This document shows, piece by piece, positions 19,068 through 46,810 of a stretch of DNA of 64,000 nt. Source of the stretch: Actinomycetota bacterium (lineage in GTDB: Bacteria; Actinomycetota; Actinomycetes; JBDIAW01); the NCBI GenBank assembly GCA_039812585.1, contig JBDIAW010000007.1, positions 1,162 to 65,161 on the forward strand, read 5' to 3'. Numbering within the stretch: position 1 is the first letter of the stretch; every line of letters begins with the position of its first letter. The position numbers were made by a program, and so were the translations under genes. Below the pieces are notes generated by a model. The model had not been told where the DNA came from and ran no database searches. It saw only the letters and a list, made by a program, of their open reading frames with translations.

Positions 19068-19551
19068 CCTAACGTTGAGGGTAGGACTTTCAGCAGAAGT
19101 TGGCCGCGCAACACTCAGTAATCATGAGATAGTGGATAGTTAAAAGATTTTGTTGCTCGATAACTTGACAAGAGAATAATTATATTCGAGGTTGAGATTT
19201 GCCGCAATTCATTACATCAATTCAAAATTAATAAACTAGTAGTAAAATAAATTATTACTGGTAGAAAATTATGTGCACTTCTTGCCAAGCATATCATCTG
19301 TATTGTTTCGTAGAAGCTGGAGTTAAAGTTAGCACAAAAAGAGCTTGCAGGCTAATTGAGAACCTACCGAGCTAGTACAACTGCCCGAGGACCCTACCTG
19401 CATGGCATTTTGGTAGTCATTGTCTGAAAAATCGTTCGGTGATGCGAACTACATTGTATGACCAGTTGCTTAAAGAGGAATTGCTCCAATCGGGATTCTC
19501 TAAGGGTAGTATCACTAGGAGCTACTTTAGACGATAGAAAAAAGTTATGAT
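19068..19551. other. 484-bp strongly AT-rich (~30% GC) spacer between treY and treX
   Basis: No ORF of 60 aa or more. Runs such as aattaataaactagtagtaaaataaattattactgg. Possible internal promoter, sRNA or remnant of foreign DNA. Confidence 0.5.
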
Positions 19552-22225: not shown

Positions 22226-22687
22226 TCAAGAGTTCAGTTCGTAAGGACTGAACTCTTCTACCGTGCGTCGCCTGATCATCGTGCTGCTGACCCCTGGGGT
22301 ATAGCCGAAATACTCCACGGCTGCGCCGAGGGCTTTTAGGCGCTCTGCATCGGCTATCCATCCTGGCTCGTGGGCGCGGTCGTCTCCGGCGAACAGGCAG
22401 TCAAAACCCCAGCGCTGCCAAGCGGCTACTTTGTCGATGGTGGTGTGATCAACCAGCACCACCTCATCGACGTAGCGGAGGGCAGCCAGGATTTCGGCGC
22501 GATCTGCGGCTGTGATCACTGGAGGGCGCTGCTTGAAGAAAATCACTAATTCATCGGTGAGAACTCCCACACGTAGATGCTGACAGCGGGCGCGCGCTTG
22601 ACGCAGCAGGGCTAAGTGGCCCACGTGGAACAGGTCGAAAACTCCCGCAATGTAACCACGCGCATACCTTGGGTCAAGTTGGGACAC
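22226..22687 (-). CDS. glycerol-3-phosphate cytidylyltransferase-like (TagD/TarD family)
   Basis: GVFDLFHVGHLALLRQARA (HxGH nucleotidyltransferase motif). Start taken as GTG 22687; the track ORF runs to 22810 and overlaps the upstream gene. Confidence 0.7.
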   Translation of the reverse strand: MSQLDPRYARGYIAGVFDLFHVGHLALLRQARARCQHLRVGVLTDELVIFFKQRPPVITAADRAEILAALRYVDEVVLVDHTTIDKVAAWQRWGFDCLFAGDDRAHEPGWIADAERLKALGAAVEYFGYTPGVSSTMIRRRTVEEFSPYELNS

Positions 22688-25628
22688 GGTGACACTCTCC
22701 CACAGAAAAGGTTTCCGGGCCGGCAAGCAGGTCCAGAGCGGCGGGCAGAACGCGGGTCCGGCGGATACCCCAGGCGTTGACTTGGCGGCGAATGGCGTCA
22801 ACGAACACATTGCAGATCACCACACACGTACGTTGCGGATCCACACCTGCCAACACGGCGGGAGATTGCACCGTCAAACCATGGCTGAGGGTGCCCCAGC
22901 GGTTCATGTCGTTATCCACCAAAATCTGCACGGGTAAGGGGGAGTGGGTGCTGTTCTCTTGATCCCACAGCTGCCCCGCCCCGAAGGCCACCACCGTCCA
23001 CTCCTGCAAACCTGTCCACGGATGGTGATACCAGCGCAACACCTCGGCATACCCACAGTCAGGATCCAACCACGCCGGGTGGCCCCGATGGTGGCGCAGG
23101 CCACCTCCAGGGCCGCCGTCGGGATCGGCAAAGGTGGCTCCGTACAGCTGGGGCAGCAGCAGGTGTGGCTGCGCCGGAGTAGGCACCTGCAACTGTTCGA
23201 AATCGTGCGTTGTGTGCCACGAACTGAAGTGATGCGCGGGTAACCCTTGGTACTCATAGCTACCGGTGTATTGGGTGAGCACCGCCGCAAGGCCAGTACG
23301 TGCAGCGTCGTAGGTGCGCACCTGCTGTTGCCACTGGGCCAACGGTTGACCAGCAGGCAGTGAGGCGGCCTGCTGGCACACCTGCTCCCACCGCTGTGCG
23401 GAACAATCGAGAAAACCGTGCCGGCGTGGTCCATACCGTTGGGCGAACACTAAACGTTGCAGGTGGCGCAACTGGTCAACATGCTCCTGGTGTGCAGCCT
23501 GGTCGGCGGGCACACCATCCACAGCAGTGATATCAATCCACATCCCCGCGTGGTGGGGTTGCCCAGCGTGCAGATGCTCCAACGCGGTGGTCGTGCTGTC
23601 TCGCAAGCGCAAAGCCCCGCCGAGAAAAAAATGCGGATCGGAGTCCGGGGTCTGCAGCCACAGCCCGGCTGGCCAGACGTTGGCGGGCAGGGCAACCAGA
23701 ACGTCAAAATCAGCTCGAGGCATCACCACGTCCAGGTCATCATCCCAGGGGATGAAGCCATCGTGGCGAAGTGCCCCCAGCAGGCTGCCATACATCACCG
23801 CCCAGCGCAGACCATGGGCGTGACAGACCTGGCCCAAGTGTTGCACCAACTGCAGTTGCACCTGCCACTGCCGCTTACGAATCCAGCTGATACTCGGGTC
23901 TCGGGCCGTACTGGCCCGCAGCAGCGGTAACTGCGGGTCAGTGGGGGTCGCCGCGTCCTGGTAGCGCCGGGCCGTCAGCGCAACCGGGGAGCTGTGCTGC
24001 CACGACCGCATCACCTGGTGGGTGTGATGGGCGCGGTTGGCAGCAACGAACGCGTACTCCTGCTCCAACCATTGCTGCCACTGCTCAGTCAGGCCGTAGC
24101 GGTGCTTCAATCCCTCCAAGCTGACCACCGTGTCGAGGGCGGGATTGAAGAAGTAGCTGTAGTGCAACGCCCGCACCATGATGGAGCCCATCGTCAGGTT
24201 AGGCTGGCAAAACTCCTGGTCAAACCACAGAAACTGCCCGTCGCGGTAAAAGCAGTTGAAGGGGACCAGGTCCAGAAAAGCCTGCTGCAGCACGGTGGTG
24301 CTGTTCCACGCTGCCAGCTGCGGTTGCCCCTGGACTCCCGCCGGATGGGGATCAACGGAGCAGCCCAGGGGCGGGCTGCTGCGCATGATCTGCTCGGCCA
24401 AACCGTCGAAAATGCAGATGAGCTGCCGGCCAACGTCAGCAAACGCGGGGATCGCGGCCAGGTGGCCGGCCAGAGTGGGACCCTCCACGTGAGGTAAGCG
24501 AACGGCAGGCCCGGGCTCCAGCTGGTGATCCAAAACGGTCAAGCCACGCTGGCGCAACGTGGCTGTATGGCTGACCAGCGCCTCGATCGCCGGATGGCCC
24601 GCTGACCACAAAGCACGCTTACGCACCGTGTGGTCGTGGTGCATGGTGGTGATCAGCGCATGCCCCACCTCCCGGTCGCTGGAGATCACCGCGCAGGTAG
24701 GGCTTTCGGCAGGGATCTGCTGACCGGCCAGCACCACAAACCCCTGGGAGAAGAACTGCTGCACCCCATTCTCGCGTAAAGCTGCCCACAGGTGAGCGGG
24801 CTCCGCGACCTGGCCCTGCCGCGTGGGGGAGTAGGTGGACAACCGGGAGAACACCTCCGGCTGCGGCTGGTAACTATCGGTGAGGATCAGCTGAGGCACA
24901 TGGTGATCGGGCAGAGGTTGGTGGACACGGACCTGGGCCAATCCGGCCTGGTGGCACAGTTGCTGAACCTGGGCCAAGCTGCGCTGGGGATGAGCTCCCG
25001 CGTAGTGCTGCATCCCCTCGAAGGCAGCATCGCCACTGCCAGGTTCGGGCAGGCCACACCAACCCGACAACGCAAACCGATTCGGCAACGCCCACAGCAA
25101 CACCCCGTGCGGGGGCAAACTCTCGGCGATGCGCGCCAGCAATTGCACGGTAGCGTGATCGCGGCGTTCGCCAGTGTCAACAAACCACGGCCAGCCATCA
25201 AGCACCACCAGATCCCACTGGCCCTGGTGGTGAGCAGGCAACAACGCAGGCAGATCGGTGGGGCTGACCAGAGTCAGGCTGCTGCCGGCGGGCACAGCCT
25301 GGGCCGGCAGGCGCGCGGTCAAAAAATCCTCACGCGGGCTGCCCAGCGCTACCACACTGACCTGCGTGCGGGCCTGCTGCCCCGATCGGCGCAGCAACGC
25401 CTCAGTCAGCTCCCCGTAGTTAGGGTTGATCTCCAACACTGATGCTGATGGAGGCAGCGGATACCACGCCACCACGGCATCACGCAGGGGGCTCAGCGCC
25501 CGAAAGACCTCCCAGCGGCCATCAGCGGTGATCACCTCGGTGAATCGGTGGGGGTCCAGGCTTGGAGCGTGCTGCTGCAAGGCACGCAGAATGACCTGCT
25601 CTGGCTGCGGCCTGCCCGCACTGCTCAT
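22674..25628 (-). CDS. large multidomain protein with central LicD-family phosphotransferase domain and C-terminal Rossmann-like domain
   Basis: MYGSLLGALRHDGFIPWDDDLDVVMPRADFD is the LicD motif. ATG at 25628 (MSSAGRPQ) overlaps the upstream stop as ATGA. C-terminus has GAGQLWD...ILVDNDMNRWG. Confidence 0.75.
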   Translation of the reverse strand: MSSAGRPQPEQVILRALQQHAPSLDPHRFTEVITADGRWEVFRALSPLRDAVVAWYPLPPSASVLEINPNYGELTEALLRRSGQQARTQVSVVALGSPREDFLTARLPAQAVPAGSSLTLVSPTDLPALLPAHHQGQWDLVVLDGWPWFVDTGERRDHATVQLLARIAESLPPHGVLLWALPNRFALSGWCGLPEPGSGDAAFEGMQHYAGAHPQRSLAQVQQLCHQAGLAQVRVHQPLPDHHVPQLILTDSYQPQPEVFSRLSTYSPTRQGQVAEPAHLWAALRENGVQQFFSQGFVVLAGQQIPAESPTCAVISSDREVGHALITTMHHDHTVRKRALWSAGHPAIEALVSHTATLRQRGLTVLDHQLEPGPAVRLPHVEGPTLAGHLAAIPAFADVGRQLICIFDGLAEQIMRSSPPLGCSVDPHPAGVQGQPQLAAWNSTTVLQQAFLDLVPFNCFYRDGQFLWFDQEFCQPNLTMGSIMVRALHYSYFFNPALDTVVSLEGLKHRYGLTEQWQQWLEQEYAFVAANRAHHTHQVMRSWQHSSPVALTARRYQDAATPTDPQLPLLRASTARDPSISWIRKRQWQVQLQLVQHLGQVCHAHGLRWAVMYGSLLGALRHDGFIPWDDDLDVVMPRADFDVLVALPANVWPAGLWLQTPDSDPHFFLGGALRLRDSTTTALEHLHAGQPHHAGMWIDITAVDGVPADQAAHQEHVDQLRHLQRLVFAQRYGPRRHGFLDCSAQRWEQVCQQAASLPAGQPLAQWQQQVRTYDAARTGLAAVLTQYTGSYEYQGLPAHHFSSWHTTHDFEQLQVPTPAQPHLLLPQLYGATFADPDGGPGGGLRHHRGHPAWLDPDCGYAEVLRWYHHPWTGLQEWTVVAFGAGQLWDQENSTHSPLPVQILVDNDMNRWGTLSHGLTVQSPAVLAGVDPQRTCVVICNVFVDAIRRQVNAWGIRRTRVLPAALDLLAGPETFSVGECHRVPT

Positions 25629-26851
25629 GTGGGCACCCGCAGGGCAATCATGCCCCGGCCCAGGTCGTCGCGCAGATGCAGCCCGTCGAGGAAGGATAAC
25701 TCCAGGCGGGAGTAGGTGCTGCTGATGTGGCGCCACAGGCGGTCGGCAAACTCCGGGTAGACAGCTTTGGCCCCACCGGCCAGCGCGGCGGGGGAGATGA
25801 GGCTGCTCAGCTCGGCCACCATCGAGGCCCACGTATCGCGCACGGCAGCGTGCAGCTGCTCCAGGCAAGCCAGGTGGGCACTGCAGCGATGCTCGGCAAA
25901 GCTGAGGAACGCTCCCGCGCAGTTCATGGTGGACACCGACGCTTCGGTGGAGGTCACCATCGTCTCTAACAGGTGGTAGCGGCCCAGCAACCAGCTGGGA
26001 TGCTCCCCTGGGTGCACGCCGCGAGTCAGCAGCGCACTCACCTGCCCGTGCCAGTCGGGCATCCCCCGGTAAAAGCCCAGGTAGAAGCCCTGCCAGTCGG
26101 CTGTGACCAATTGCTCCAAGCCGGCCTGGCACGTGCCCATCGAGACCAGATCGAAAAAGGCGAACGTGCCGCCCTCGCGCACCCCCAAGCGGTGCAGGTA
26201 GGCACTGTAATGCTGACGCAAGCCTGCGGCGTCCTGCAAAATCTGATCGCGATGCGCAAAGGCGCGCTGCAGGGCCAGCTGAGCTCCAGCCGCATCCAAC
26301 GCCGTGCGCGGGGCATCTGGGCTGCTGGTGGACACCCCCGCAAGGCCAGCGGGCAGGCGCTCGGCCAGCAGGTCATCCACCGTGCCGGCAAAGGGGGAGT
26401 GGCACAGGGCAGCTAGATCCTGGTCGCTGCGCAGGCTGGCCTTGCTGATGAGGCTTCGGGAGATGCGTAAATAGCGCGAGGCTGGCAGATTGTGCCCGCC
26501 GGGCAAGTGGCGCAACGACTCATAGAGCTGGCGCAGCAGCAGGCCATCGCGAGCGGCGAAAAGAACCAGGTGAGGTTGGCGCAGCATCATCTGCTGGGCC
26601 AACCACACGGTGAAAACGCCCAGCAGCGGCCCGAGAATGAGCTGGCCCACCTGCGTCATCGAACTCAACCGGGGGCGGGGGTCCTCCGGCGGCCCACCCA
26701 ATCGCTGGGCGTGCTCGATCACTGCCCGGGCCACGTGGTGCTCCAGGGGGGATCGGGCCAGGTGCTCCAAGTCCGCCCAGGGGTGTGCACTGTCCTGCTG
26801 TGGTGAGATCTCCGGCAGCCTGGGGGTGTCAGTGGGGGTGGGCCAGGGCAT
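25625..26851 (-). CDS. hypothetical protein carrying an uncharacterised domain paralogous to the C-terminal half of 30247..32478
   Basis: LVLFAARDGLLLRQLYE and GTFAFFDLVSMGTCQAGLEQL align with LYVAARDGFILQRLITD and DTIAFCDFVSAGTSQLALEDVL in the other protein. Confidence 0.5.
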   Translation of the reverse strand: MPWPTPTDTPRLPEISPQQDSAHPWADLEHLARSPLEHHVARAVIEHAQRLGGPPEDPRPRLSSMTQVGQLILGPLLGVFTVWLAQQMMLRQPHLVLFAARDGLLLRQLYESLRHLPGGHNLPASRYLRISRSLISKASLRSDQDLAALCHSPFAGTVDDLLAERLPAGLAGVSTSSPDAPRTALDAAGAQLALQRAFAHRDQILQDAAGLRQHYSAYLHRLGVREGGTFAFFDLVSMGTCQAGLEQLVTADWQGFYLGFYRGMPDWHGQVSALLTRGVHPGEHPSWLLGRYHLLETMVTSTEASVSTMNCAGAFLSFAEHRCSAHLACLEQLHAAVRDTWASMVAELSSLISPAALAGGAKAVYPEFADRLWRHISSTYSRLELSFLDGLHLRDDLGRGMIALRVPT

Positions 26852-27992
26852 AGAGAACCGTCTCCGCAGGGTAGATGCTGTAGTGGCGCAGGTAGAGCGT
26901 GTAATCGGGGACCAGCGAGGTGATGAGTTCCGGGATGATCACCACGTCCTCCGGGCGGTGGTAAACCGAGATCGCCAAGCTGGGACGGTGAGTGGTGATG
27001 GTCGAACGCGCCCCCCACAGCGCTTCGTACTCTGCGCCCTCAATGTCCATCTTGATGAAGCTGACCGCCCGGCCCTGCAGCCAGGAGTCCAGGTCGGTCA
27101 CCTCAATACTGTCTGCGGCTTGGGCGGCGATGGTCGAGCTGCCGTTGCTGGTAGCAAGAAAGCCCAACCGGGTTTGGTGGCTCCACAACCCCAGGGGTAC
27201 CAGCGTGCACGCCGGGCGCCGCCCCGCCTGGACCAGCTGGTGGGCGCGGGCGAGGTTGGCCGGATCGGGCTCGAAGGCGTAAAACTGCCCTCGGTGCTCA
27301 GGGCCGTAGTGGCGTTGCATGACCTCAGCAAAGGCTTGGGTGGTCTCCAGCTCCAACGCCCCGGCATCCACCACCACCTCATCGGCGCGCAGGTGCACCA
27401 AGCCTGGTTCCAGGTATTGCACCGACAGATCCGCGCTGCCGCCCAGAATGTGCTCCGGGCTGACCCCGTGGGCTAGCAGCAGTGTGCGCATCTGGTCGGC
27501 ATACATCTCCGAGCCCAACAGGAAGCGCACCGGGCGGCCTTGATGGTAGGCGGCAACGACCTCCAGAGGATGCTCCACGGGCAGATCCTTGGTGGCGCTC
27601 AGTGCGCTGTTGCGGTCGCAGAAACTATGCACCTGCACACCCAACTGTGACTGCACAATCCAGCGCAGCGCATCCCCCTCCCCCCCAGCCCCATAGATCA
27701 CCAGCTGGCAGGAAGGCGCCAGAGCGGCGAGTTGATCGAGCAAACGCTGCCAGCTAAAGGGCTCCTTCAACTGGACCAGACCTTGATCGACCAGATCCAT
27801 CATGCACATCGGGTCGTGGGTGTGGTTCATCTGGAGTCGGGCAGCCAGGATGGTGCGAGAGTGCTCATCGGCCAACCGGTCAGCTACCGCCTCGGCCTGT
27901 GCCGTAGTGGGCACCGGGCGCTGCACTGGCAGGCCCAACGGTGCCGGGTCGCAGGCCAGGCTGGGTGGGGCTGGGTGCAGATTCAGGCTCAT
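26829..27992 (-). CDS. FkbM-family methyltransferase with N-terminal Rossmann-like domain
   Basis: FIKMDIEGAEYEAL FkbM motif. ATG at 27992 forms an ATGA overlap with the TagF-like stop. N-terminal QLVIYGAGGEGD. Confidence 0.7.
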   Translation of the reverse strand: MSLNLHPAPPSLACDPAPLGLPVQRPVPTTAQAEAVADRLADEHSRTILAARLQMNHTHDPMCMMDLVDQGLVQLKEPFSWQRLLDQLAALAPSCQLVIYGAGGEGDALRWIVQSQLGVQVHSFCDRNSALSATKDLPVEHPLEVVAAYHQGRPVRFLLGSEMYADQMRTLLLAHGVSPEHILGGSADLSVQYLEPGLVHLRADEVVVDAGALELETTQAFAEVMQRHYGPEHRGQFYAFEPDPANLARAHQLVQAGRRPACTLVPLGLWSHQTRLGFLATSNGSSTIAAQAADSIEVTDLDSWLQGRAVSFIKMDIEGAEYEALWGARSTITTHRPSLAISVYHRPEDVVIIPELITSLVPDYTLYLRHYSIYPAETVLYALAHPH

Positions 27993-30250
27993 GACTGGCT
28001 CCGGGTGGGCGTGCAAGCCAGGCTGTTCTGCTCCCGCACGGTGCGCACCAGACCGTCGTGGATGCGTTGCCCCACCCGCCCATCCAGCGGCCCCATCACC
28101 GCCGCAAAGGCCTGCCGTTGCCCTGCTTCATCGTGCTGTCCGTTGGTGAGGTGGTCCAACAGGTCATCGAGGCTGACCTCACCTCCATCTTGTTGGCAGG
28201 CCCAGGGCAGGTTGGCACTGTAACTGCCAAAGCAGCCGTGCTCCTGCGTGCGTTGCCAGGCATCGGGGTCGGCACAGCGAGTGGAGACCAGCCTCCAACT
28301 GCCGTCAGGACTGCCTATCGACAGCGACAGGTCATAGGCCCATTGCGTGACCACCGTGCCATCAGCCAAGCAGGTGGCGAACAGGGCGTTACTGACCCAG
28401 TCATGCTCGGGGGTACTGCGCTGCGCAGCGTCCTGGTAGGGCAGTGGGCCCACATCGGCCAGCTCAATCCGTGGTGTAGAGGCGTGAGGGTCGATCCGCA
28501 CCGCAGCGTTGGCGTCACGAGGCAAGGCCAACACCTGCCCCTGCCAGGCCACCACGTTGACAAAAGGGATCACCCCGGGAGTGAAGCCGGCGGGGTAGTC
28601 ACTGAAGCGGCGCGTCTGGCCAGTGTCCAGATCGTAGGCCAGGATGGTGCTGCCCTGCGCGGGTGCCAACCACACCGTGCGGTCCAGAACGAGCAGATCC
28701 CAAAACGCCTCGCCGGGCTGGCCCACCTCGTGGCGGGTCACCGTGTGGGTGGCCAGATCGAAGATGAATAGCGCGTTGGTGCGGGTGCTGGCCATATACA
28801 GCAGATCCCCCTCCAGCTGCACCCCGTTCATGGCGTGGAAGATCAGCTCGTTGCCGTGCGGGGCGGGGTTATCCTCCAGCCAGTCATCCCACACCTGCTG
28901 AGCTCCGGTGCTCAGGTCGACCAGGACCAAGCCTGGGTGCAGGCCTGGTACCAGCACCAGGGTGTCCCTCCAGCGCACCGAGCGCACGAAGGACTGCGGC
29001 GTTGCCCCGGGAACCTCGTTGCGCTGCATCCACCCACTGGAGGGCTGGTAGCGGCACATCACCCGGGAGAAGTAAGGAGTCACCAGCAGCTCGTCGTGTT
29101 CGCGGCTCCAGGACACAGCATTGTGGGCGCGCAACAACTGCCTGGGTTGACCCAGGCTGGCTACGGGGGTGAACTCACCTGTAGCCAGATCCAGCCGACA
29201 CAGGGTGTCCAGCCGGGCATGGGCAAACCACGCGGTGGTTGGCTCATCAGGATCCTGAACCAGGTCCGTCATCCACGCCTGGTCATAGCAGGTGGAGCTT
29301 GGCGGTTGCTGGTGGGCCTGAGGGTCAGGAGCAGCCAGCAACAGCACCGGCTTACCTGCCGCCCCAAAGTAATGCGCCGCCGAGGAGGTCGGCTCTCCCA
29401 GGTAGGCCGAGCACCAATGCAGGGCGGCGCTGAGATCAGTGGTGGTATCGATGAGCACCGCCTGGCTGCTGGTCGCCGTTTTGCGCAAAGCGTTATAGGC
29501 CACTCGCACCAAGGGGGCCTGGGAGGTCAGCGTGGCCTCCAGCAGAGGGTGAGGCCTCCAGATCAGCACGATGTCGCGGCGTTGCTCCACCGCCGCGATG
29601 ACCTGTTTCAGGCGCGTGAAGTAGGCCGAACCCGCCGCCAATACTGTGGCGATTCCGGTGTTGAGAAACACGGCGGTACGTCCCCGTAGGTGACTCACCC
29701 AGTCCGGTGTCTGCAAAGGCACAGTGCTGTTGGTGCTGGTTGCACGCACGACCAGGTCGGTTTTGGCGCTGCCCCAGGGCAGGAGTTTGTCACGGTAGCG
29801 CGGGCTGAAATGGTGAGCCATCTGCGGCGTTTGCGTGATGATCCAATCCACGTTGTCATAACTGGGCAGACTGCCGTGGGATTCGGTCAACGCCCCCCCG
29901 GAAAGGTAATAAGGCAGGTAGACAATGCTGGCCCCGGTATTTTTCAACGTGGAGGCAAAAAACCGTTGGGGGATCCGGGTCACCACGTTGAAAATGTCAA
30001 AGACGTTGTGCAGATAGATGATGTCGGGACCAAAACTGTGCACATCGAAGGTTTCGTGGGACTCCACCATCACCTCAGCCGGAAACTGGTCGGATTCATC
30101 GTGGACGGCGACCGGAACACCTTCAACGATTTCGCTGTAAGGGATGGGAATGACCTTCACCTCGCACTCTGGGTCGTTGATCGCCGCCTGCCAAACCGTG
30201 TGCATGCAGTCCCACAAGCTTGCTTTATAGGGCATGAAACAGATCCTCAT
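27989..30250 (-). CDS. TagF/TagB-family CDP-alditol phosphotransferase (polymerase-like) fused to C-terminal beta-propeller-like repeat domain
   Basis: N-terminal ~400 aa has RDIVLIWRPHPLL (the KPHP-type motif of the Glyphos_transf family). The C-terminal ~350 aa has repeated beta-strand blocks. ATG at 30250 overlaps the upstream stop as ATGA. Confidence 0.65.
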   Translation of the reverse strand: MRICFMPYKASLWDCMHTVWQAAINDPECEVKVIPIPYSEIVEGVPVAVHDESDQFPAEVMVESHETFDVHSFGPDIIYLHNVFDIFNVVTRIPQRFFASTLKNTGASIVYLPYYLSGGALTESHGSLPSYDNVDWIITQTPQMAHHFSPRYRDKLLPWGSAKTDLVVRATSTNSTVPLQTPDWVSHLRGRTAVFLNTGIATVLAAGSAYFTRLKQVIAAVEQRRDIVLIWRPHPLLEATLTSQAPLVRVAYNALRKTATSSQAVLIDTTTDLSAALHWCSAYLGEPTSSAAHYFGAAGKPVLLLAAPDPQAHQQPPSSTCYDQAWMTDLVQDPDEPTTAWFAHARLDTLCRLDLATGEFTPVASLGQPRQLLRAHNAVSWSREHDELLVTPYFSRVMCRYQPSSGWMQRNEVPGATPQSFVRSVRWRDTLVLVPGLHPGLVLVDLSTGAQQVWDDWLEDNPAPHGNELIFHAMNGVQLEGDLLYMASTRTNALFIFDLATHTVTRHEVGQPGEAFWDLLVLDRTVWLAPAQGSTILAYDLDTGQTRRFSDYPAGFTPGVIPFVNVVAWQGQVLALPRDANAAVRIDPHASTPRIELADVGPLPYQDAAQRSTPEHDWVSNALFATCLADGTVVTQWAYDLSLSIGSPDGSWRLVSTRCADPDAWQRTQEHGCFGSYSANLPWACQQDGGEVSLDDLLDHLTNGQHDEAGQRQAFAAVMGPLDGRVGQRIHDGLVRTVREQNSLACTPTRSQS

Positions 30251-32478
30251 GGCATGGCTTCCTCTGCTGGGGCGGCTGGACATTCCAAACCGGTGCATTC
30301 CAGCCAGGAGAAATCTCGACCACAAAACTCGTCATAGAGTTTTTTGTCCGCCAGGATGTGTGGGTTAGTGACCACGGTGTAGTCGCGGTGAAGAAATTTC
30401 AGCAGCCGATCGGCCACGCTCGGATCAGGATTGTGCCACGGGGTGTAGCCCAGTAATTCGTGAAAAGTGCGTGCATAATCGGTGATCGCATCGTGGATGT
30501 CCCGCAGACTGGCAATTTGATCAGGTGTTCTCGTTTCAGGGCCAAACACTGGCTCGCCACCTGAAGAAAATCCCACCAACGTCGGTTGATCAGACGACAG
30601 CACATTTTCGACGAACATGTAGTTGTCCAACAGGTGTGACGTGGACACATAGTGGTTACCGCTAGTGAAAAGTGACTGGACAGCTAAGCCTTTTTTGGGA
30701 GGAAAGTCGGAGGCTAAGCGGACGAAAAAGAACCCCTGGATCGATCGACCCAACACATCCTCCAACGCCAATTGAGAGGTACCTGCCGAGACGAAGTCAC
30801 AGAAGGCAATCGTGTCTTCCTTGGTCAGTCCAAGATCTTCCAGATAGGTACGGTAATTCTTTTCTGCTTCTTGCGCGCGGGCTTGGATGGCCGGCCAGTG
30901 GCGCTGCACATAATCGACCCATTCTTCCCCTGCCTCTCGGGGGGAGATCTCCTGCGGATCCAGGTGGAAACGTTGGGCAAGCAGGTGCTCCGCACTGCCT
31001 TGGAAGGGAAACGAGACGGCATACTCCAAGCGCTGTGGGTTGACCAACGAAGCAAAAACCCCGCAGGCTCGTGAAGTGAGTAGATAGACCGGTTGGGGAT
31101 AGTGATGCTCACCTCGATGACGATGCTGATAGCCCTGGATAAAATCAGTAATGAGCCGTTGAAGAATAAAGCCGTCACGTGCTGCTACATACAATCGCTC
31201 ACATTGACCTTGTGTGCGCTCGAGCAGCCAGTGAACAAAGGTGGTGACAATCGGTGCAGTAAAGATGGTCCCGATATCGCTGTCATGCTCGAGACGAAGA
31301 CGTCCTTGGGTGTCATGGAAGATAAACGGATCATTGAAGACGTGCGAGGCGAACATTCCCACCTGAAGCTGGGTGTGGGGGGTCGTAGCGAGCTCCAGGA
31401 GTTCATCGAGGGCCGAGCAGTCCAACAGGGCATAAGGGGAGGCAATGAGCACACTGGACATTCCCCGCTGGGTGGCAGCTGCATCGTCGGCGTCGGGGTT
31501 GTCTCCAATGTGCACACAGGTCGAAGGGTTTTTACCTTCCAGATACACGTCAAATAAGCCATTGCATTTCGAGACGCCGTAGTCGCCAGACACCAGCAGG
31601 GTGTGTGGCCCACGCACCCCACAACGCTGCAACCATCCGGTGATCGTGGCGCTGGAGTGGTACATATCAGAAATCAAGGTGACGGGCTTACCTAGGCTCA
31701 GGGCATAGTCATAGAGGTCCACCACGGCTCGACGGGGGATCAGGGCTTGAGTTTCACAGGATAATTCCAGCGCTTGCAACTCCTGACATAACCATTGGGG
31801 CCAGCCGGTGTTGCGATGTAAACGTTGGTAAATATCTTCAAGGGTAGGGCTGCCGATCTCGCGGTTCAGTTCACCTTCTGCACCACTGCGTTGCTGCGCG
31901 AAACGGTCACAGTCATACCCACGAGCTGAGGCCTGTACGGCAACCAGATCAAAAATGTGTGCAGGTTGCAAAACCCGCCGGGTCATCAAGGTGTCGAAAA
32001 TGTCAAAACTAATAGAATCCGCCTGTGCGATCTGAGCTTTCACCTCATCGGAACTCACAGATGGGTAGGGATCGAGGTAGGTGTTTTTTTCTGCCAGCCG
32101 AGTCAGATCGCGTCCTTGCAAATCATAAACGGCAATGCCAGCCTGGCGACAGGATTGTTCTATGCGACGGAAAATAATACGCACATTGCTATTACGGGCC
32201 ACAATAACGATAGTTTGTACTCCAGAAGCCACTGCTTCATCCATACTCAACACCGGATACCCGTAAACCCGCTCACCTTCTCGTGCGGCATCCAACAATC
32301 CCACAATGTGATAATGCGGGTAATGGTGCACAATGATTTCAGTGCTTGCACTTAACCCATAAATGGCCACTGGAAGGTGAGGGTCGGTCACGATGGACCC
32401 AAATTGTTGCAGAACATAGCGTTGTTCAGCAGTTAACTGCCCTGGGGTATGACTGAGGTTATTCAGGGTGGTTGTCAT
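30247..32478 (-). CDS. multidomain protein: N-terminal Rossmann-like domain, HAD-like phosphatase domain (DxDxT), C-terminal uncharacterised paralogous domain
   Basis: PVAIYGLSASTEIIV...; ISFDIFDTLMTRR is HAD motif I; the C-terminal half is paralogous to 25625..26851. ~45-50% GC. ATG 32478 has a GAGGTG RBS. Confidence 0.65.
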   Translation of the reverse strand: MTTTLNNLSHTPGQLTAEQRYVLQQFGSIVTDPHLPVAIYGLSASTEIIVHHYPHYHIVGLLDAAREGERVYGYPVLSMDEAVASGVQTIVIVARNSNVRIIFRRIEQSCRQAGIAVYDLQGRDLTRLAEKNTYLDPYPSVSSDEVKAQIAQADSISFDIFDTLMTRRVLQPAHIFDLVAVQASARGYDCDRFAQQRSGAEGELNREIGSPTLEDIYQRLHRNTGWPQWLCQELQALELSCETQALIPRRAVVDLYDYALSLGKPVTLISDMYHSSATITGWLQRCGVRGPHTLLVSGDYGVSKCNGLFDVYLEGKNPSTCVHIGDNPDADDAAATQRGMSSVLIASPYALLDCSALDELLELATTPHTQLQVGMFASHVFNDPFIFHDTQGRLRLEHDSDIGTIFTAPIVTTFVHWLLERTQGQCERLYVAARDGFILQRLITDFIQGYQHRHRGEHHYPQPVYLLTSRACGVFASLVNPQRLEYAVSFPFQGSAEHLLAQRFHLDPQEISPREAGEEWVDYVQRHWPAIQARAQEAEKNYRTYLEDLGLTKEDTIAFCDFVSAGTSQLALEDVLGRSIQGFFFVRLASDFPPKKGLAVQSLFTSGNHYVSTSHLLDNYMFVENVLSSDQPTLVGFSSGGEPVFGPETRTPDQIASLRDIHDAITDYARTFHELLGYTPWHNPDPSVADRLLKFLHRDYTVVTNPHILADKKLYDEFCGRDFSWLECTGLECPAAPAEEAMP

Positions 32479-32491
32479 GGTTCGCTGCACC

Positions 32492-33256
32492 TCACCCGAA
32501 AATCTGTTCAGTTTCGCGGGCGTCTAAGATCGCCCTCACCATGTAAAAGTCGGTGGCGGTCGTCACTTTGATATTGTCCGGCGAACACAGAACGGCGTGC
32601 ATGGTATGGCCATAGGCTTGCATCAGGCTTGCCGAATCCACAAAATCACACCTGCGATCCCTGCGGGCATATTCATGGGCGCGGAAAATATCCCGAAAAC
32701 GAAAACTTTGTGGGGCTTTCGCGATATGTGTTTGAGAGCGTTCTAAGACGTCATCAATGCGACCATTGTCGTGAACTCTGGCTACTGTTTCCCACTCTGG
32801 GGCAACCGTAATTGCGTTCCCTTTGTTTTTCACTGATTCGATGTTGGCAGAAATTGCCTCTGCGGTCACTAAAGGGCGTACCCCATCATGAATCAATACG
32901 ATGCCGTCATCGGGCACACCTGCTAATTCAAGCGCCTTCAGCCCTTGGTAGATGGACTCCTGACTGGTCGCCCCACCTGGAACAATATCGATTACTTTGT
33001 CACATTTGTGGTGAGCGGCATCTTTTTTAGCACGATCAATCCATCCCGCCACGCACACCACGACTATCCCATTGATCTCTGGATGAGTGTCAAAATGTTC
33101 AATGGTGTGCTGCAAAATGGTTTTCCCGTGAATGCGCAAAAACTGCTTCGGTGTGGCGCGCGAGTTCATGCGCACCCCCACACCTCCGGCAAATATCACC
33201 ACGTAATTAATGGCGTGTCCCCTCTGCAGGGGGTGATCTGCATGCTGGCAAATCAC
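32492..33256 (-). CDS. tarI: IspD/TarI-family cytidylyltransferase (candidate ribitol-5-phosphate cytidylyltransferase)
   Basis: VVIFAGGVGVRM...PKQFL...GK.IL. ~50% GC. Sits beside an SDR reductase, like the two halves of Bcs1. Confidence 0.75.
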   Translation of the reverse strand: MICQHADHPLQRGHAINYVVIFAGGVGVRMNSRATPKQFLRIHGKTILQHTIEHFDTHPEINGIVVVCVAGWIDRAKKDAAHHKCDKVIDIVPGGATSQESIYQGLKALELAGVPDDGIVLIHDGVRPLVTAEAISANIESVKNKGNAITVAPEWETVARVHDNGRIDDVLERSQTHIAKAPQSFRFRDIFRAHEYARRDRRCDFVDSASLMQAYGHTMHAVLCSPDNIKVTTATDFYMVRAILDARETEQIFG

Positions 33257-33288
33257 CCAGAATCACCCGTAGGGTAACGGAAAGGTGA

Positions 33289-34431
33289 TCAACTGATAAC
33301 GGCGGGGGCCTGGTCCAAACGGACTATCGGCGCAGCCGGGCAGATTTGCCCACTGGCGTGCCAGTACTGCACCATCTGGCTCAGGCTATCGGCTAACTGG
33401 GTGCGAGGGTGCCACCCCAGGTGCCTCAGGCGATCCGCGCTCAGACGGTTGGCCGTGGGGGCGGCGAAGCCCGTTATGCGCCGGTCACGCACATCAATCC
33501 TCACTTGGCAACGGCCACCCCCGAAGCGGTCGCAGATCAGCTGCGCCAACTGGGCCACTTGCATACTGCTGGCGGGGTTAACCACGGTATAGGCGGTAGG
33601 ACTGTGACCCACCAGCCCTACCTGGAGCAGGCCGGCCAGGGCATCCAAGCTGTCGCAGTAGTTCCCCATTGCGGTTCCGGTGCTGCGCAGTATCACATCC
33701 TGACCCAGGAGCACTTGTCGGGTGAAGGCGGCAGGAGCGCGCGGATCAAGCGCGGAGGTCCCCATCCCTACCACTTGCCCCAGGCGAGCCACCACGCAGT
33801 TCAGCCCATGCTGAGTCGCATACAACGTGCACAGGTGCTCGGCGGCGCGTTTGCCCAGCGGGTAGCAACTGCGTGGGTCTACCGGGTCAATCTCCCCCAG
33901 ATACGCTTCCTCGTCGGCCACACGTGGGTGTGCCGAGCGCAGGCCGTAGACCTCCACCGAGGAGAGGTAGACCACTCGCGTGGCGTGTTGCTGCTGCGCC
34001 CAGCCCAACACCTGGGAGGTGCCGGTGAGGATCCCCTCGAAGACCTGCAGCGGTTGGCTGGCCATCGTCGAGGAGGAGGTGGTTGCGGCGCAGTGGAACA
34101 CCCACACCCCGTCGGCGCCTGGCACCGCCTGGCTCAGCTCAGGGGGAGCTTGCTGCTGCAGGTCCCAGCGCACCCACTGCAGGGGCGTGTCTCCCAGAGG
34201 GGGGAGATGCTCGGGTAGGCCTGGGCGGTGACGGTAGGTGCCCACCAGGCGCAGGTCCAGATCATGGGCTCGCTGAGCTGCATCAAGGGCTGCCACCAGC
34301 ATCCCACCCACCGTGCCGCTGGCTCCGGTGATCACCACGCAGGCGCCGCGAAGCCGCTGCCATGGCAAAGGCAGTGCAGCCACCTGGTCTAAGCCTGTGC
34401 TCCACCCTGATTCGCCCCAGCCTGCACGCAC
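33289..34431 (-). CDS. NAD-dependent epimerase/dehydratase-family SDR (candidate ribulose-5-P reductase partner of TarI)
   Basis: VVITGASGTVGGMLV glycine-rich NAD-binding motif and extended SDR fold. Start is uncertain and probably internal. Confidence 0.7.
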   Translation of the reverse strand: MRAGWGESGWSTGLDQVAALPLPWQRLRGACVVITGASGTVGGMLVAALDAAQRAHDLDLRLVGTYRHRPGLPEHLPPLGDTPLQWVRWDLQQQAPPELSQAVPGADGVWVFHCAATTSSSTMASQPLQVFEGILTGTSQVLGWAQQQHATRVVYLSSVEVYGLRSAHPRVADEEAYLGEIDPVDPRSCYPLGKRAAEHLCTLYATQHGLNCVVARLGQVVGMGTSALDPRAPAAFTRQVLLGQDVILRSTGTAMGNYCDSLDALAGLLQVGLVGHSPTAYTVVNPASSMQVAQLAQLICDRFGGGRCQVRIDVRDRRITGFAAPTANRLSADRLRHLGWHPRTQLADSLSQMVQYWHASGQICPAAPIVRLDQAPAVIS

Positions 34432-37110: not shown

Positions 37111-38617
37111 CTCGGCTCACCCCACCTCGCTGTGTGGGTCAATCCAGCACAGCGCACCTCTGCACTCAGTCAGGCCTGCTTTGCCACACCTTTCCCCCCT
37201 CAGGCACAGATCATGAACTGGCTGGCGTTGCCTCTGCCAGCCTGAGAACAGCAGCTTTCTGCCTCGTAGACCATGGTGGTGCGCGATCTAAGCAGCCGTG
37301 ATCACCAGGAGGGCATCCTCGCTGAGGGGGTTGGTGAAGCTGCGGGTGCCAGAGTAGGTCACTGGCTCTGCCGTGCCTACGTTTTTCCCGGTGGAAGGGT
37401 TGATCCACTGAGCTTTACCGGGCCCGGAGAGCTTACCGAGGTTAATAGTGAGATTGCGCTGAACCGGGGTGTACGCCATGATCAACGATCCGTCTGACGA
37501 ACGGGCTGCGGTGGCGTAGGTATCGTTGCTGCCTCGCTCACCGGTCAGGATCGAGCCGTCGGTGTCAGGCGCCAGCGACGCGATGGGGTAGCGCTGCATC
37601 ACGATGCCCACCATGGCTGTGTCACGTGCACCTTGGCGATCGAGTTCTTTAACTGCCATCTGGCCTGCGGAACCAGGCTGTGTGTCCCAGTTCAAGACCG
37701 ATCCACCGTAGGCCACTCCCATGGCTTCAGCGAGGGCAGCCCACCAGCCGGTGCGTCTGTTGCGGCGGACTCCGAAGTCCCACCCGGAGCCGCAGCAGGG
37801 TTCCTGGTCGTAGTGCGGCTCCATGTGAAACACGGGTTTGGCGGGGGACCAGGCTCGTTGGTTGGACACGTAGCCGTAAGGCCAGGGAGAGCTTTCAGCG
37901 CTGAATTGGAAGGAATAGAAACTGTGCCATGAACGTGACTGCATCTGGGGTGCGCTGCTTTAGTTGTGGTAAGTGATGATTGCGGCGGGGTGAGCGCTGC
38001 GAATCGCCGGCCCCAAGATGTCAGCTTGGGCGATGAACTTCGCATTGTCGTCATCTCCTCCCAGGAACCAGATGACGTTGCTCGAGTTTTTGTACCGCTG
38101 CCCCAGGAAGCGGCCGTAGGCGGCCAACTCATCGTCACAAGGCGAGCGAGTCGATCCCCCATCGCCCCACCCCCCATTATTAGCTGCCCACAACGGGTTC
38201 AGCATCAATGTGATGCCTTGTGATTGGGCATATCGCACGAGCTCATCGGCTCCTTGCCACCAGGAAGGATCAGGAGAAGTTAACGTACCGTTCAGGAAAG
38301 GTTGACCGCGCACAGTGTCTTGCGTGTAGCTGTGAAATGAGAACGACGCCATGATGGTGTTATAGCCCTGGCGTTGACGAATCTGCATGTACTGCTTGAC
38401 AGCGGGGATGGTGTAACCGCTGAATATGTTCCACCCAGTGTCGGCCACCATAAAGAACGGTTTTCCGGAGTTGTCAGCCAGATAACGTTGATCGCTGCTC
38501 ACGCTCAGAGGCCAAGTGGGAGTTCCAGTCGATGAGGGGACTCGGGATGTGGAGGGCGATGCGACCTGGCTGATCGAACCAGTGCTGTGAGGGGGGGCTC
38601 CACGAGGTCGTGGCGGT

Positions 38618-41732: not shown

Positions 41733-42049
41733 GCCAGCCCATGCTAGTGCCACCGAGGTCCTACCCCATGATGTCTGCGGCAGTGATGAGCGAGGCTCGC
41801 CAAGACTCACTGGTTCGTTCCACGAATCGGGCTGCTGGCCAGGAGTTGTTCGGGCGGCATCATGAGGACGCGCTCGGTGGTGGCTTCGGTGGACTCGGGA
41901 AGAGTCGTGAGCCGATACCCCGACTTGCGTGCCGGGGTCACGTTGTCATCTGTGTCACGGGGTCCTCATAGCAGTCGGTCTGGCACAGCTGGTGTCCGTT
42001 GCAGTGTGACGAACCAGTGTTACTTGACATAACGTGCATTATCGGCGTT

Positions 42050-42077
42050 GAAACCAACGGGAGTACAACTAGATGCA
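42050..42077 (-). terminator. weak hairpin (7-bp stem gggagta/tactccc, 14-nt loop) 100 bp downstream of ATPase stop, followed by GTTGGTTT
   Basis: gggagtacaactagatgcaactactccc. Confidence 0.25.
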
Positions 42078-42176
42078 ACTACTCCCGTCACTCGACGTGG
42101 GCGGCCGCAGCTGGTCAAAGTCATCGACGGACTATGGGGGGTCTCGCTCGAGGCTTGCCGTGCAGCGCATCTCGGC

Positions 42177-46631: not shown

Positions 46632-46674
46632 GGGGCTCGCTTTCACCAACGACTCCAGGCAGGGTAGCAAAGCC

Positions 46675-46749: not shown

Positions 46750-46810
46750 TTCAGTGCACTCTCCCCTGACGGTCAGCCCCAGGAGGGATGCTGAGGAGAG
46801 TGATCAGGTA

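Follow-up and report, generated by a model that had tools for sequence, protein, structure and literature searches.

What is built by the eight co-directional genes that run down the minus strand from 34431/34383 to 22226 in this actinobacterium, and on which acceptor? A first-pass annotation had read them as a split version of the Haemophilus type b (Hib) bcs pathway that makes a wall polymer or capsule. We examined the eight genes, their surroundings in the window (the whole 64-kb stretch of DNA analysed) and 82 related loci, around which flagellar and membrane genes were counted within 10 kb either side. The ORF listing and junction sequences bore out the tight packing described earlier. 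The first two gaps measure 32 nt (SDR/IspD) and 13 nt (IspD/HAD-CriT), the end of the FkbM gene overlaps the start of the gene for a 408-aa protein by 23 nt, and the LicD-large gene overlaps the GTG start of the tagD-like gene by ~17 nt. ATGA start/stop overlaps were present as reported, but there are three (30250-30247, 27992-27989 and 25628-25625) and not two. No transmembrane segment was predicted in any of the eight proteins. Promoter and terminator scans of the sequence gave chance-level signals only, and a tRNA scan found no genes.

The first two genes likely supply an activated donor. An extended SDR of the NAD-dependent epimerase/dehydratase family (33289..34383, minus strand, 364 aa; PF01370, E 1e-28) is followed by an IspD/TarI-like cytidylyltransferase (32492..33256, minus strand, 254 aa; PF01128, E 1e-43), which confirmed the pairing first proposed. 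The longest ORF of the SDR reaches 34431; the 364-aa call is that seen on metagenome contigs L001 and L002. On sequence grounds, family membership of the IspD-like protein is certain, and it scored just under two narrower models, with 178.4 bits against a cut-off of 181.3 for TIGR00453 (ispD) and 155 against 166 for NF001183, the ribitol-5-P cytidylyltransferase subfamily. The SDR had no NCBIfam equivalog match and differs in type from TarJ, which is an MDR. We regard it as a putative pentulose-5-P reductase partnering the IspD-like enzyme. IspD occurs in 16 of the 82 related loci, and an SDR of this type accompanies it in 11 of these.

A second cytidylyltransferase, TagD-like and of the HxGH family, closes the operon (22226..22690, minus strand, 154 aa; PF01467, CTP_transf_like, E 2.9e-16). 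Its translation contains HVGH and TPGVSST, and its GTG start is preceded by GGGAGAG. The earlier assignment to TagD held for the superfamily, to which the Pfam match and the HxGH motif assign the protein, and no further: the glycerol-3-P cytidylyltransferase equivalog TIGR01518 gave 52.4 bits against a cut-off of 165.4, slightly below the score for RfaE domain II. Because this lies so far under the cut-off, a glycerol-3-P substrate is not established. The gene is present in 71/82 related loci, usually beside the TagF-like gene.

The gene at 30247..32478 (minus strand) encodes a HAD-CriT protein of 743 aa in three domains. A Rossmann-like module (32119-32373) is followed by a HAD phosphatase (31384-32013), which is homologous to CrpP of Hib Bcs3, and by a ribofuranosyl-5-P transferase domain of the PRPP type (30250-31383), whose homologue is CriT of Bcs3. 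Using the Bcs3 domain limits and key residues given in PMC10299916, we found a phmmer match to residues 384-854 (8a0c/9h50) at E 7.3e-9, which a profile of the protein's family extended to E 7.8e-42. The Pfam match to HAD was weak (E 1.4e-3). The region nevertheless aligns to Bcs3 384-591 and carries motif I as DIFDTL (DxDxT), the motif III Lys at K548 and motif IV as GDNPDAD, and this motif I together with the CrpP homology upheld the DxDxT phosphatase domain annotated earlier. The CriT domain aligns to Bcs3 592-854, with equivalents of R679/D680 (RDG), S707/R708 (SR) and T825 kept and E818 replaced by Asp. Over the full length, the protein is 30-32% identical to the neighbours of TagF-propeller genes in related loci L003, L006 and L020. 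Judged by these alignments, its relationship to the CrpP and CriT regions of Bcs3 is one of true sequence homology.

A further CriT-like (gPRT-like) protein of 408 aa, a stand-alone paralogue with no phosphatase domain, is encoded at 25625..26851 (minus strand). It matched residues 397-680 of the HAD-CriT protein by BLASTP (E 1e-23) and is linked to CriT solely through that protein, as it gave no direct match in Pfam, NCBIfam or the PDB. The RDG, SR, D and G-T-x-Q motifs, invariant or conservatively kept across both CriT-like proteins of the window and six homologues, are retained in it, and in both window proteins the position of Bcs3 S678 is Ala. Pairs of gPRT and PRP domains add Ribf to glycans in a PRPP-dependent manner (PMC11231755). 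The first-pass annotation had given no function for this gene and had likewise missed the CriT-like domains. A natural-product reading, with PRPP ribosylation of the aminoglycoside type, was set aside, since the homologues lie in glycosylation islands and other biosynthetic genes are absent.

Between these two genes lies one for a 753-aa protein (27989..30250, minus strand), in which a TagF-like GT-B phosphotransferase domain (29336-30250, minus strand) is followed by a beta-propeller (28271-29263, minus strand) and a C-terminal helical tail. The protein itself did not match PF04464 (Glyphos_transf) at E ≤ 0.01, whereas 14 of 26 aligned homologues did (best E 2.5e-13), so that its membership of the TagF family is transitive only. 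Fold comparison indicated a GT-B two-Rossmann fold resembling TagF. Two histidines, H81 and H234 (the latter in R-P-H-P), are invariant in the 26 sequences and follow beta-strands in the N-terminal and the C-terminal half; they are candidate counterparts of the catalytic pairs H444/H584 of TagF and H96/H233 of CroT. The TagF-like assignment made earlier is supported by family homologues and fold. In TagF-type enzymes, Pro at position +3 after the putative catalytic His goes with glycerol-P transfer and Gly with ribitol-P transfer (PMC10299916). By simple motif reading, the window protein has neither at +3, and its donor is therefore not readable from the sequence. It also lacks an N-terminal extension of ~110 aa present in its relatives. 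Taken with the HAD-CriT protein, the second CriT-like protein and the split IspD and SDR, this TagF/CroT-like GT-B protein made the analogy with a split Hib bcs pathway stronger than first drawn.

The two remaining proteins would modify the product further. An FkbM-family methyltransferase of 387 aa (26829..27992, minus strand) exceeded the cut-offs of both PF05050 (E 5.5e-13; 49.8 bits against 22.7) and TIGR01444 (63.1 bits against 37.7), in agreement with its first assignment, and is 39% identical to the FkbM protein of L020. It consists of a catalytic domain (~26946-27332) and an N-terminal Rossmann-like module (~27423-27680). The LicD-large protein (22674..25628, minus strand) starts with a domain resembling class I methyltransferases, in which motif I is degenerate (25029-25481). 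A conserved but uncharacterised domain comes next (23994-25028), then the LicD phosphotransferase domain (23139-23825), and a Rossmann-like module (22749-22994) makes up the fourth part. The LicD domain proposed earlier was clearly matched (PF04991, E 1.5e-30; 107.5 bits against 22.6, with IPWDDDLDV in the translation), and the length given then as ~985 aa is corrected to 984 aa. Its match to FKRP (6kaj) was weak (E 5.5e-3), and over 55 aa only, its N-terminal motif is similar to the glycolipid cholinephosphotransferase Mf1 of Mycoplasma (NF045866, E 1e-15). LicD is found in 46 of the 82 related loci.

The N-terminal 545 aa of this protein fall in a family of 1291 representatives. Methyltransf_11 matched 21 of 28 members, and the family profile matched N-methyltransferases in the PDB (E 4e-10); motif I reads LEINPNYGELT in the window protein against a consensus of LEIGxGFGALTG. 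Outside the methyltransferase part of this region, Pfam gave nothing; the profile of the middle domain gave nothing in the PDB, and single-sequence AF2 reached a pLDDT of 35. A LicA/APH-type kinase, prompted by a D-L-V-P-x-N...F-D-Q-E motif, was unsupported (hhalign probability 0.1 against an approximate NPTII sequence). A word-index search for homologues with the 984-aa query returned the query alone. The Rossmann-like module of ~80 aa is common to the 743-aa, FkbM and 984-aa proteins. Speculatively, it may dock its three carriers in place of the covalent fusion found in Bcs3.

These families suggest a pathway. Like the halves of Bcs1, the SDR and the IspD-like enzyme would together produce a CDP-pentitol, of which CDP-ribitol is the likeliest, a step suggested by their families and conserved pairing; the TagD-like enzyme would make a second CDP-activated donor. 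The TagF-like/propeller protein and the LicD domain might each use a CDP donor to place a phospho-linked group on the hydroxyl of a sugar. The CriT-like domain would move ribofuranose-5-phosphate from PRPP and the CrpP-like HAD domain, with an activity assigned by homology, would strip the 5-phosphate, while the phosphatase-less CriT-like protein could add a further ribose or leave ribose-5-phosphate. FkbM would then O-methylate the product. We consider it probable that the operon encodes soluble cytoplasmic enzymes which form a self-contained set and make a phosphodiester glycan with Hib-capsule-like chemistry on an acceptor encoded elsewhere. Weighing against this are the inferred donors, the PF04464 failure of the TagF-like protein, the degenerate SAM motif, the lack of an SDR equivalog and the mosaic GC3.

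The operon contains no initiating transferase, exporter or ligase, which suggests that it extends or decorates a pre-existing glycan that is protein- or lipid-linked. The surroundings gave the same picture. Among the window genes scanned by Pfam, no exporter (ABC transporter or flippase; TagGH, Wzx, KpsMT) was found, and the 64 kb held no polyprenyl-phosphate priming transferase (TagO/WecA-type), LCP ligase or initiating glycosyltransferase. The operon is thus not a complete capsule locus, and its product may serve to decorate a protein, or a wall polymer already in place, instead of forming a capsule alone. This result, together with the placement of Bacillota cassettes in flagellin islands, told against the earlier claim of a wall polymer or capsule; a glycerol-phosphate content or a methylated poly(alditol-phosphate) is something that we infer at most. 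Genes for export, priming and ligation could sit outside the 64-kb window.

It is possible, but not the reading we favour, that the operon encodes the polymerase and the precursor enzymes for a wall polymer or capsule of the teichoic-acid kind, such as poly(Ribf-ribitol-phosphate) with glycerol-phosphate and methyl groups, which would be assembled on a lipid carrier at the membrane's inner face and then exported and ligated by the products of distant genes. The CroT-, CrpP- and CriT-like modules are those of the Hib polymerase, which function in trans when separated, and in E. coli K18 CroT is a separate protein (PMC10299916). TagF/TagB-type enzymes are peripheral and not integral membrane proteins, so that the soluble predictions are compatible with such a polymer. 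The absence of flagellar genes from the 64 kb also fits it, as does the protein encoded directly upstream on the same strand, a membrane-anchored, glycan-depolymerase-like beta-helix protein. Teichoic acids are, moreover, common in actinobacteria. Against it stand the missing transporter, primer and ligase, the enrichment of homologous cassettes at flagellin loci nearly free of export genes, and the one characterised TagF-like enzyme of such an island: FtaD (CD0244) of C. difficile is a single-transfer phosphotransferase acting on protein-linked GlcNAc, and no polymerase (bioRxiv 10.64898/2026.02.12.704994).

The beta-helix protein (34465..37110, minus strand, 881 aa) combines G8 and CEMIP-type domains (PF24606, E 1e-66; PF10162, E 2e-30) with an N-terminal membrane anchor, a hydrophobic segment at residues 31-49. 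The arrangement is repeated on metagenome contig L001, and the protein is absent from all 82 related loci. Its membership of the operon is uncertain.

Related loci placed the cassette in a different setting. The TagF-like/propeller family has at least 579 relatives in species-representative genomes, and none of 88 homologues had a high-GC amino-acid composition. The best 80 GTDB loci were all from Bacillota, found with peptide patterns that the window protein itself does not match, so that close actinobacterial relatives may be missed; within these limits, the view that the locus is unusual for an actinobacterium was supported. No relative came up when metagenomes were scanned with the window protein, and the window proteins were all singleton 90% clusters. 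Homologous cassettes sit beside flagellin genes in gut and soil Firmicutes, and relatives of the cassette occur at flagellin loci of Clostridia, Kineothrix and other Lachnospiraceae among them. In Clostridium sp. KNHs205 (L020), a matching gene set lies downstream of fliD-fliS-flgN-fliC and flagellin glycosyltransferases, with an IspD 43% identical to that of the window. In Paenibacillus agaridevorans (L006), TagF-propeller, HAD-CriT and MT-X-LicD genes adjoin fliC/fliW/csrA, the MT-X-LicD fusion being 29% identical over 742 aa. L003, the closest homologue, also adjoins flagellin. In all of L003, L004, L006 and L020, the cassette has flagellin or flagellar genes and a flagellin glycosyltransferase as neighbours. 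As far as sequence comparison goes, the cassette shares its ancestry with the accessory genes of flagellin glycosylation islands in Bacillota. Identities to these cassettes are only 25-50%, and the function may therefore have diverged.

This kinship raises the alternative that the enzymes elaborate an O-glycan with phosphodiester groups, ribose and methyl on flagellin or another cytoplasmically glycosylated surface protein, with the initiating glycosyltransferase and target distant. We think this rather unlikely. All three best-matching loci (L003, L006 and L020) abut fliC, and flagellar genes occur within 10 kb in 22 of the 82 related loci, against a chance expectation roughly estimated at a few per cent; in the other 60, none does. 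No polytopic membrane protein lies within 10 kb either side in 66/82, and of ten membrane ORFs sampled only one or two were polysaccharide-related. The enzymes of the window are likewise all soluble, with no exporter. The orders of the host's nearest named relatives include motile genera; its best named transketolase relatives are from Actinomycetes MAGs (63-67% identical). FtaD and FtaC of C. difficile offer a precedent, and FkbM and tagD genes are noted in Geobacillus flagellin islands (PMC5109656). However, the 64-kb window holds no flagellin, flagellar gene or flagellin-type glycosyltransferase, actinobacteria are mostly non-motile, and our literature searches gave no flagellin glycan with ribitol-phosphate or ribofuranose.

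Composition bears on another alternative, that the operon's target is a glycolipid or its product a small phosphoglycosylated metabolite, or that it is a partly decayed acquired cassette of little function. GC3 is mosaic, with 0.77 for the SDR and 0.54, atypical for the host, for the IspD-like gene, and foreign DNA adjoins the operon. These features, the NF045866-like stretch of LicD, the degenerate methyltransferase motif I and the missing N-terminal extension of the TagF-like protein would all suit it. We nevertheless hold it to be very improbable. The eight reading frames are all unbroken and coupled in translation, and the catalytic motifs of the IspD, HAD, CriT-like, LicD and cytidylyltransferase domains are kept in the translations and alignments. 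The IspD protein is identical on independent metagenome contigs, where the gene order matches over the covered part. GC3 is host-like in five of the eight genes, which suggests long residence under selection.

The preferred reading, a soluble phosphodiester-glycan pathway acting on an acceptor encoded elsewhere, would bear on a recent field. It was only in 2022-2023 that PRPP-dependent addition of ribofuranose and multi-enzyme polymerisation of the Bcs3 type were described, in capsules and O-antigens of Gram-negative bacteria, and the authors of the Bcs3 work left open the role of its Gram-positive homologues. Here, an uncultured, deep-branching actinobacterium has Bcs3-type catalytic modules on separate proteins whose translation is coupled, and homology ties these modules to Bacillota flagellin-island cassettes. 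A bolder and decidedly less probable idea is that many Lachnospiraceae, Paenibacillus and Selenomonadaceae share an undescribed class of cytoplasmic protein-glycan elaboration, placing Hib-like ribitol-phosphate/ribofuranose on flagellin or surface proteins, and that the actinobacterial copy was acquired horizontally and re-targeted to a non-flagellar acceptor. Such a class would comprise the TagF-like/beta-propeller, CrpP-CriT, IspD with SDR, LicD and cytidylyltransferase proteins, and if it exists, the flagella of gut commensals could show epitopes related to the Hib capsule antigen. Clostridium sp. KNHs205 is a cultured carrier of a homologous cassette, whose product could be accessible there through flagellin glycoproteomics; P. 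agaridevorans T-3040 is cultured as well. The TagF-like/propeller family and the family of the uncharacterised ~350-aa domain (~1300 representatives) are further leads.

Compared with Hib Bcs1 and Bcs3, all module types are present in the window (IspD-like plus reductase, TagF-like GT-B, HAD and PRPP-type transferase), but they are distributed among four or five proteins. The phosphatase and transferase are direct homologues of Bcs3 385-854 (E 8e-42), and in both systems the phosphatase precedes the transferase. The TagF-like part has diverged strongly, with no Pfam match and a beta-propeller instead of the SH3b domain, and the reductase is an extended SDR that is not fused to IspD as in Bcs1. 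The window adds a second CriT-like gene, LicD, a second cytidylyltransferase and FkbM, and it has no ABC-transporter capsule export region; its host is Gram-positive.

The two-domain ribofuranosyltransferases (gPRT and PRP) of Klebsiella O4/O7, as far as the work of Kelly et al. 2022 is related in PMC11231755, show the same HAD and PRPP-transferase pairing in one polypeptide, which is likewise one module among separately encoded transferases. Sequence homology to gPRT/PRP was compared against Bcs3 only, and at E ≤ 0.01 the search did not bring up the Thermobacillus composti structure. The window protein has an extra N-terminal Rossmann-like module and a phosphatase-less paralogue, and no Wzm/Wzt transporter or terminator modules lie near its genes.

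The wall teichoic acid polymerases TagF and TarL differ from the 753-aa protein, which fails PF04464, lacks the TagF membrane-association region and carries a propeller, at a locus with no tagB, tagD, tagO, tagG, tagH context. Pneumococcal TarI/TarJ with LicD and mammalian ISPD-FKTN-FKRP have in common with the window an IspD-type enzyme, here a putative source of CDP-alditol, and a LicD-fold transferase (DxD motif WDDDLD); here, LicD is embedded in a 984-aa MT-like/unknown/LicD/Rossmann fusion, and the reductase is not of the TarJ (MDR) type. FtaABCD of C. difficile (CD0241-CD0244, flagellin Type A), likened by enzyme type, likewise joins a cytidylyltransferase, a class I methyltransferase and a TagF-like enzyme in a cytoplasmic, exporter-free system. 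Fta uses an NTP_transferase-type cytidylyltransferase and the PSP-like FtaA and has no IspD, LicD, CriT/CrpP or propeller, whereas the window has these and no flagellin context.

The genes between 22226 and 34431 form an operon. The ORF listing showed eight successive minus-strand ORFs with nearly no intergenic space, whose likely limits are SDR, 33289-34383 (364 aa in metagenome-contig calls); IspD, 32492-33256 (254 aa); HAD-CriT, 30247-32478 (743 aa); the TagF-like/propeller protein, 27989-30250 (753 aa); FkbM, 26829-27992 (387 aa); a CriT-like paralogue, 25625-26851 (408 aa); the LicD-large protein, 22674-25628 (984 aa); and a tagD-like gene, 22226-22690 (154 aa). ATGA couplings were present as first described, but the count of two was too low, as the junctions gave three (30250-30247, 27992-27989 and 25628-25625). 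Read directly, the FkbM and CriT-like genes overlap by 23 nt (26829-26851), the tagD-like gene starts with a GTG at 22690 within the final LicD codons, preceded by GGGAGAG, and only 13 and 32 nt flank the IspD gene. Scans for consensus promoters and terminators gave nothing above chance level.

In Pfam/NCBIfam domain checks, IspD matched at E 1e-43, scoring slightly under both the ispD and the ribitol-5-P cytidylyltransferase cut-offs of NCBIfam. Its neighbor matched the epimerase/dehydratase family of extended SDRs (E 1e-28), and FkbM exceeded both curated cut-offs, so these assignments of the first-pass annotation held. The proposed TagD-like glycerol-3-P cytidylyltransferase belongs to the HxGH cytidylyltransferase family (E 2.9e-16) but reached only 52 bits against the glycerol-3-P equivalog cut-off of 165; the name is therefore right at the family level only. 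IspD and SDR together would supply a CDP-ribitol donor and the tagD-like enzyme some CDP-X donor, while FkbM would carry out methylation.

We then compared HAD-CriT with Bcs3, the CroT-CrpP-CriT capsule polymerase of Haemophilus influenzae type b (Hib). Residues 160-595 aligned to Bcs3 384-854 (phmmer, E 7.3e-9), the sole PDB-sequence match, and a profile of HAD-CriT plus six homologues matched Bcs3 at E 7.8e-42. In Bcs3, residues 374-591 form the HAD phosphatase CrpP and 592-1036 form CriT, which transfers ribofuranose-5-phosphate from PRPP (PMC10299916). The alignments thus identify HAD-CriT as a true homologue of CrpP plus CriT at the sequence level. The phosphatase domain predicted earlier was recovered with its DIFDTL motif, motif III Lys and GDNPDAD, aligned to CrpP. 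In Bcs3 numbering, the CriT residues R679/D680 (RDG) and S707/R708 (SR) are kept, T825 (G-T-x-Q) is retained, and the E818 position is an invariant Asp in the HAD-CriT alignment. The 408-aa gene, which had been given no function, encodes a phosphatase-less protein that is paralogous to this CriT-like domain (E 1e-23) and has the same motifs; PRPP would be the donor for both. With the CriT-like modules matched, the locus is predicted to carry every activity of Bcs1 (CDP-ribitol synthase) and Bcs3, divided among separate proteins, and the analogy with a split Hib bcs pathway is supported.

The TagF-like/propeller protein itself had no Pfam match. Its homologues, mostly ~845 aa and from Lachnospiraceae and relatives, share at most 31% identity with it, and 14 of the 26 sequences in the family alignment matched PF04464 (Glyphos_transf). 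An AF2 model (pLDDT 84) showed a predicted TagF-like fold, with an N-terminal alpha/beta domain (1-305), a beta-propeller (about 330-660) and C-terminal helices; a ~110-aa N-terminal helical extension found in relatives is missing. H81 and R-P-H234-P are invariant across the 26 sequences, and H81/H234 are plausible counterparts of the catalytic histidines H96/H233 of CroT and H444/H584 of TagF (PMC10299916). The donor-discriminating residue of TagF-type enzymes is Pro in glycerol-P transferases and Gly in ribitol-P transferases (PMC10299916); by simple motif reading, it is neither in this protein.

The LicD domain proposed earlier was confirmed (E 1.5e-30, WDDDLD motif) and is followed at the C-terminus by a ~80-aa Rossmann-like module. 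The N-terminal ~545 residues of LicD-large define a family of 1291 representatives (E <= 1e-3). The leading part of this family is a methyltransferase of class I, with 21 of 28 members matching Methyltransf_11 and N-methyltransferases as the best PDB profile matches (E 4e-10). Motif I is degenerate in the window protein (LEINPNYGELT vs LEIGxGFGALTG). Residues ~200-545 (23994-25028, minus strand) form a conserved domain of ~350 aa with the motif [DE]-h-h-P-x-N-C-F-Y...F-D-Q-E-F and zero Pfam or PDB matches. Its family (P0222-P0370) has about 1300 representatives in a 50%-identity library, usually after a class I methyltransferase domain. A kinase-like reading of this domain was unsupported by the comparisons made. 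By profile comparison (E 1e-7 to 1e-8), the Rossmann-like module recurs at the HAD-CriT N-terminus and within FkbM, in its N-terminal half, and thus occurs in three of the eight proteins (32119-32373, about 27423-27680 and 22749-22994, minus strand). In homologues it corresponds to PF22674 (C2185-like_N), joined to many enzymes of related Bacillota islands; we speculate that it may be a docking or assembly domain.

All eight proteins are soluble, with no transmembrane-like segment, and the 64-kb window lacks export and initiation genes (exporter, polyprenyl-phosphate priming transferase, LCP ligase) as well as ordinary glycosyltransferase and flagellar genes. The remaining genes are housekeeping or unrelated (tkt, ctaA/B, a two-component system, malic enzyme, leuA-like, treX/treY-like, iron permease, DAGK, crt genes, MmpL, argS and copA). 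A lipid-linked wall polymer as acceptor, in line with the wall polymer of the first-pass annotation, is possible but less likely than not. Directly upstream of the operon (34465-37110, minus strand) lies a gene for an 881-aa G8 and CEMIP-type beta-helix protein with an N-terminal membrane anchor, a possible glycan depolymerase. Because this gene was found in none of the 82 related loci, its operon membership is uncertain. At 37288-38502 (minus strand), an apiosidase-like glycoside hydrolase (PF13204) occupies two adjacent ORFs (180 and 218 aa). An independent metagenome contig was called with this split too, so it is not an assembly error in the window.

The window comes from an uncultured lineage of Actinomycetes. 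All window proteins looked up were singletons at 90% identity; the transketolase had one 80% relative, and its best named relatives (63-67%) were MAGs of Pseudonocardiales, Frankiales, Mycobacteriales and Acidothermales. GC3 is mosaic within the operon (IspD 0.54, HAD-CriT 0.56, tagD-like 0.63; 0.75-0.82 in the other five genes and in host genes). Just downstream (16800-22146, minus strand), treX/glgX-like and treY-like alpha-amylase-family genes, with no treZ seen, are clearly foreign (G+C 46-48%, GC3 0.40 vs about 0.75-0.82 in the genome). These values show that the region repeatedly received foreign DNA. An SMC/AAA_13-type ATPase of 729 aa is encoded at 42177-44366 (minus strand), in a lower-G+C stretch (0.58, 42001-44000); along its entire length it matches PDC-S46, a candidate anti-phage system in PADLOC (E 2e-271). 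In a carotenoid cluster at 45705-52271, crtI and crtB accompany an Idi-polyprenyl synthase fusion (46685-48421) and another FAD oxidoreductase; an adjoining ORF with an N-terminal MerR-like helix-turn-helix, recognized by eye, suggests regulated pigment synthesis.

Scanning species-representative genomes with the 26-sequence alignment returned at least 579 relatives; all of the 80 best were from Bacillota. The scan's peptide patterns do not match the window's own TagF-like protein, so close actinobacterial relatives could be overlooked. A metagenome scan with that protein found no relatives, and none of 88 homologues had a high-GC amino-acid composition. When ORFs of 82 related loci were searched with the window proteins, homologues were found for tagD-like in 71 loci (usually adjoining the TagF-like gene), LicD in 46, IspD in 16 (11 also with SDR), FkbM in 10 and HAD-CriT in 6-9.

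Clostridium sp. KNHs205 has the whole set (IspD, TagF-propeller, LicD, the methyltransferase-like and ~350-aa domains, two FkbM, tagD, HAD-CriT and SDR) directly downstream of fliD-fliS-flgN-fliC and DUF3880- and GT2-TPR-type glycosyltransferases. Four of the eight window proteins have their best match there (32-48% identity), and the SDR has its second-best (33%). Homologues of all eight functions lie there in one run (NZ_JNLE01000005.1, 1485-21117), in which fliC is followed by three DUF3880/Glyco_trans_1_2-type glycosyltransferases, a GT2-TPR transferase and the window homologues. Paenibacillus agaridevorans has TagF-propeller, HAD-CriT and the same fusion of the methyltransferase-like, ~350-aa and LicD domains adjoining flgK-fliC-fliW-csrA-fliC. 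The locus of the closest homologue is also downstream of flagellin-fliW-csrA, and a Lacrimispora locus is flanked by pseudaminic-acid/Maf genes and fliE-fliF. Flagellar genes occurred within 10 kb in 22 of the 82 loci. The entire gene set is homologous to cassettes in Bacillota flagellin islands. No polytopic membrane protein was encoded in about 20 kb at 66 of the 82 loci; ten such ORFs sampled comprised one Wzy-like protein, one PMT/acyltransferase fusion and otherwise unrelated transporters. Such islands of soluble enzymes are a signature of cytoplasmic protein glycosylation. A protein-linked glycan as acceptor, as for the Bacillota relatives, is nearly as likely for the window as a lipid-linked wall polymer, and likewise less likely than not. 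Overall, the operon's product is probably a phosphoglycan of the ribitol-phosphate/ribofuranose type, built in the cytoplasm on an acceptor that is produced elsewhere; we likewise infer the reaction order and the acceptor. Clostridium sp. KNHs205, a cultured organism, is ready for experiments to find the product.

In Clostridioides difficile, a role was first predicted for the TagF-like CD0244/FtaD (PMC10714395), which was then shown to use a CDP donor to place phospho-N-methylthreonine on flagellin O-GlcNAc (bioRxiv 10.64898/2026.02.12.704994); a class I methyltransferase of that system works on the CDP donor, and fta-like genes have been noted in larger clusters in Kineothrix and other Lachnospiraceae. 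Geobacillus flagellin islands are reported to contain FkbM and tagD genes (PMC5109656). In the flagellin glycan literature, we found no report of CriT/CrpP, IspD or LicD modules, nor of ribitol-phosphate or ribofuranose; the Bcs3 paper is silent on flagella and does not settle what Gram-positive homologues do (PMC10299916). O-antigen synthesis has established examples of two-domain gPRT/PRP ribofuranosyltransferases (PMC11231755). Each enzyme family is already known, as is a split Bcs3 in E. coli K18, where CroT is a separate protein; Bcs3 fragments also function in trans (PMC10299916). What is new is the combination of modules, the TagF-like/propeller fusion, the fusion of LicD to the methyltransferase-like and ~350-aa domains, the duplicated CriT-like gene, the actinobacterial host, and the connection of Bcs3-type modules with flagellin glycosylation islands.
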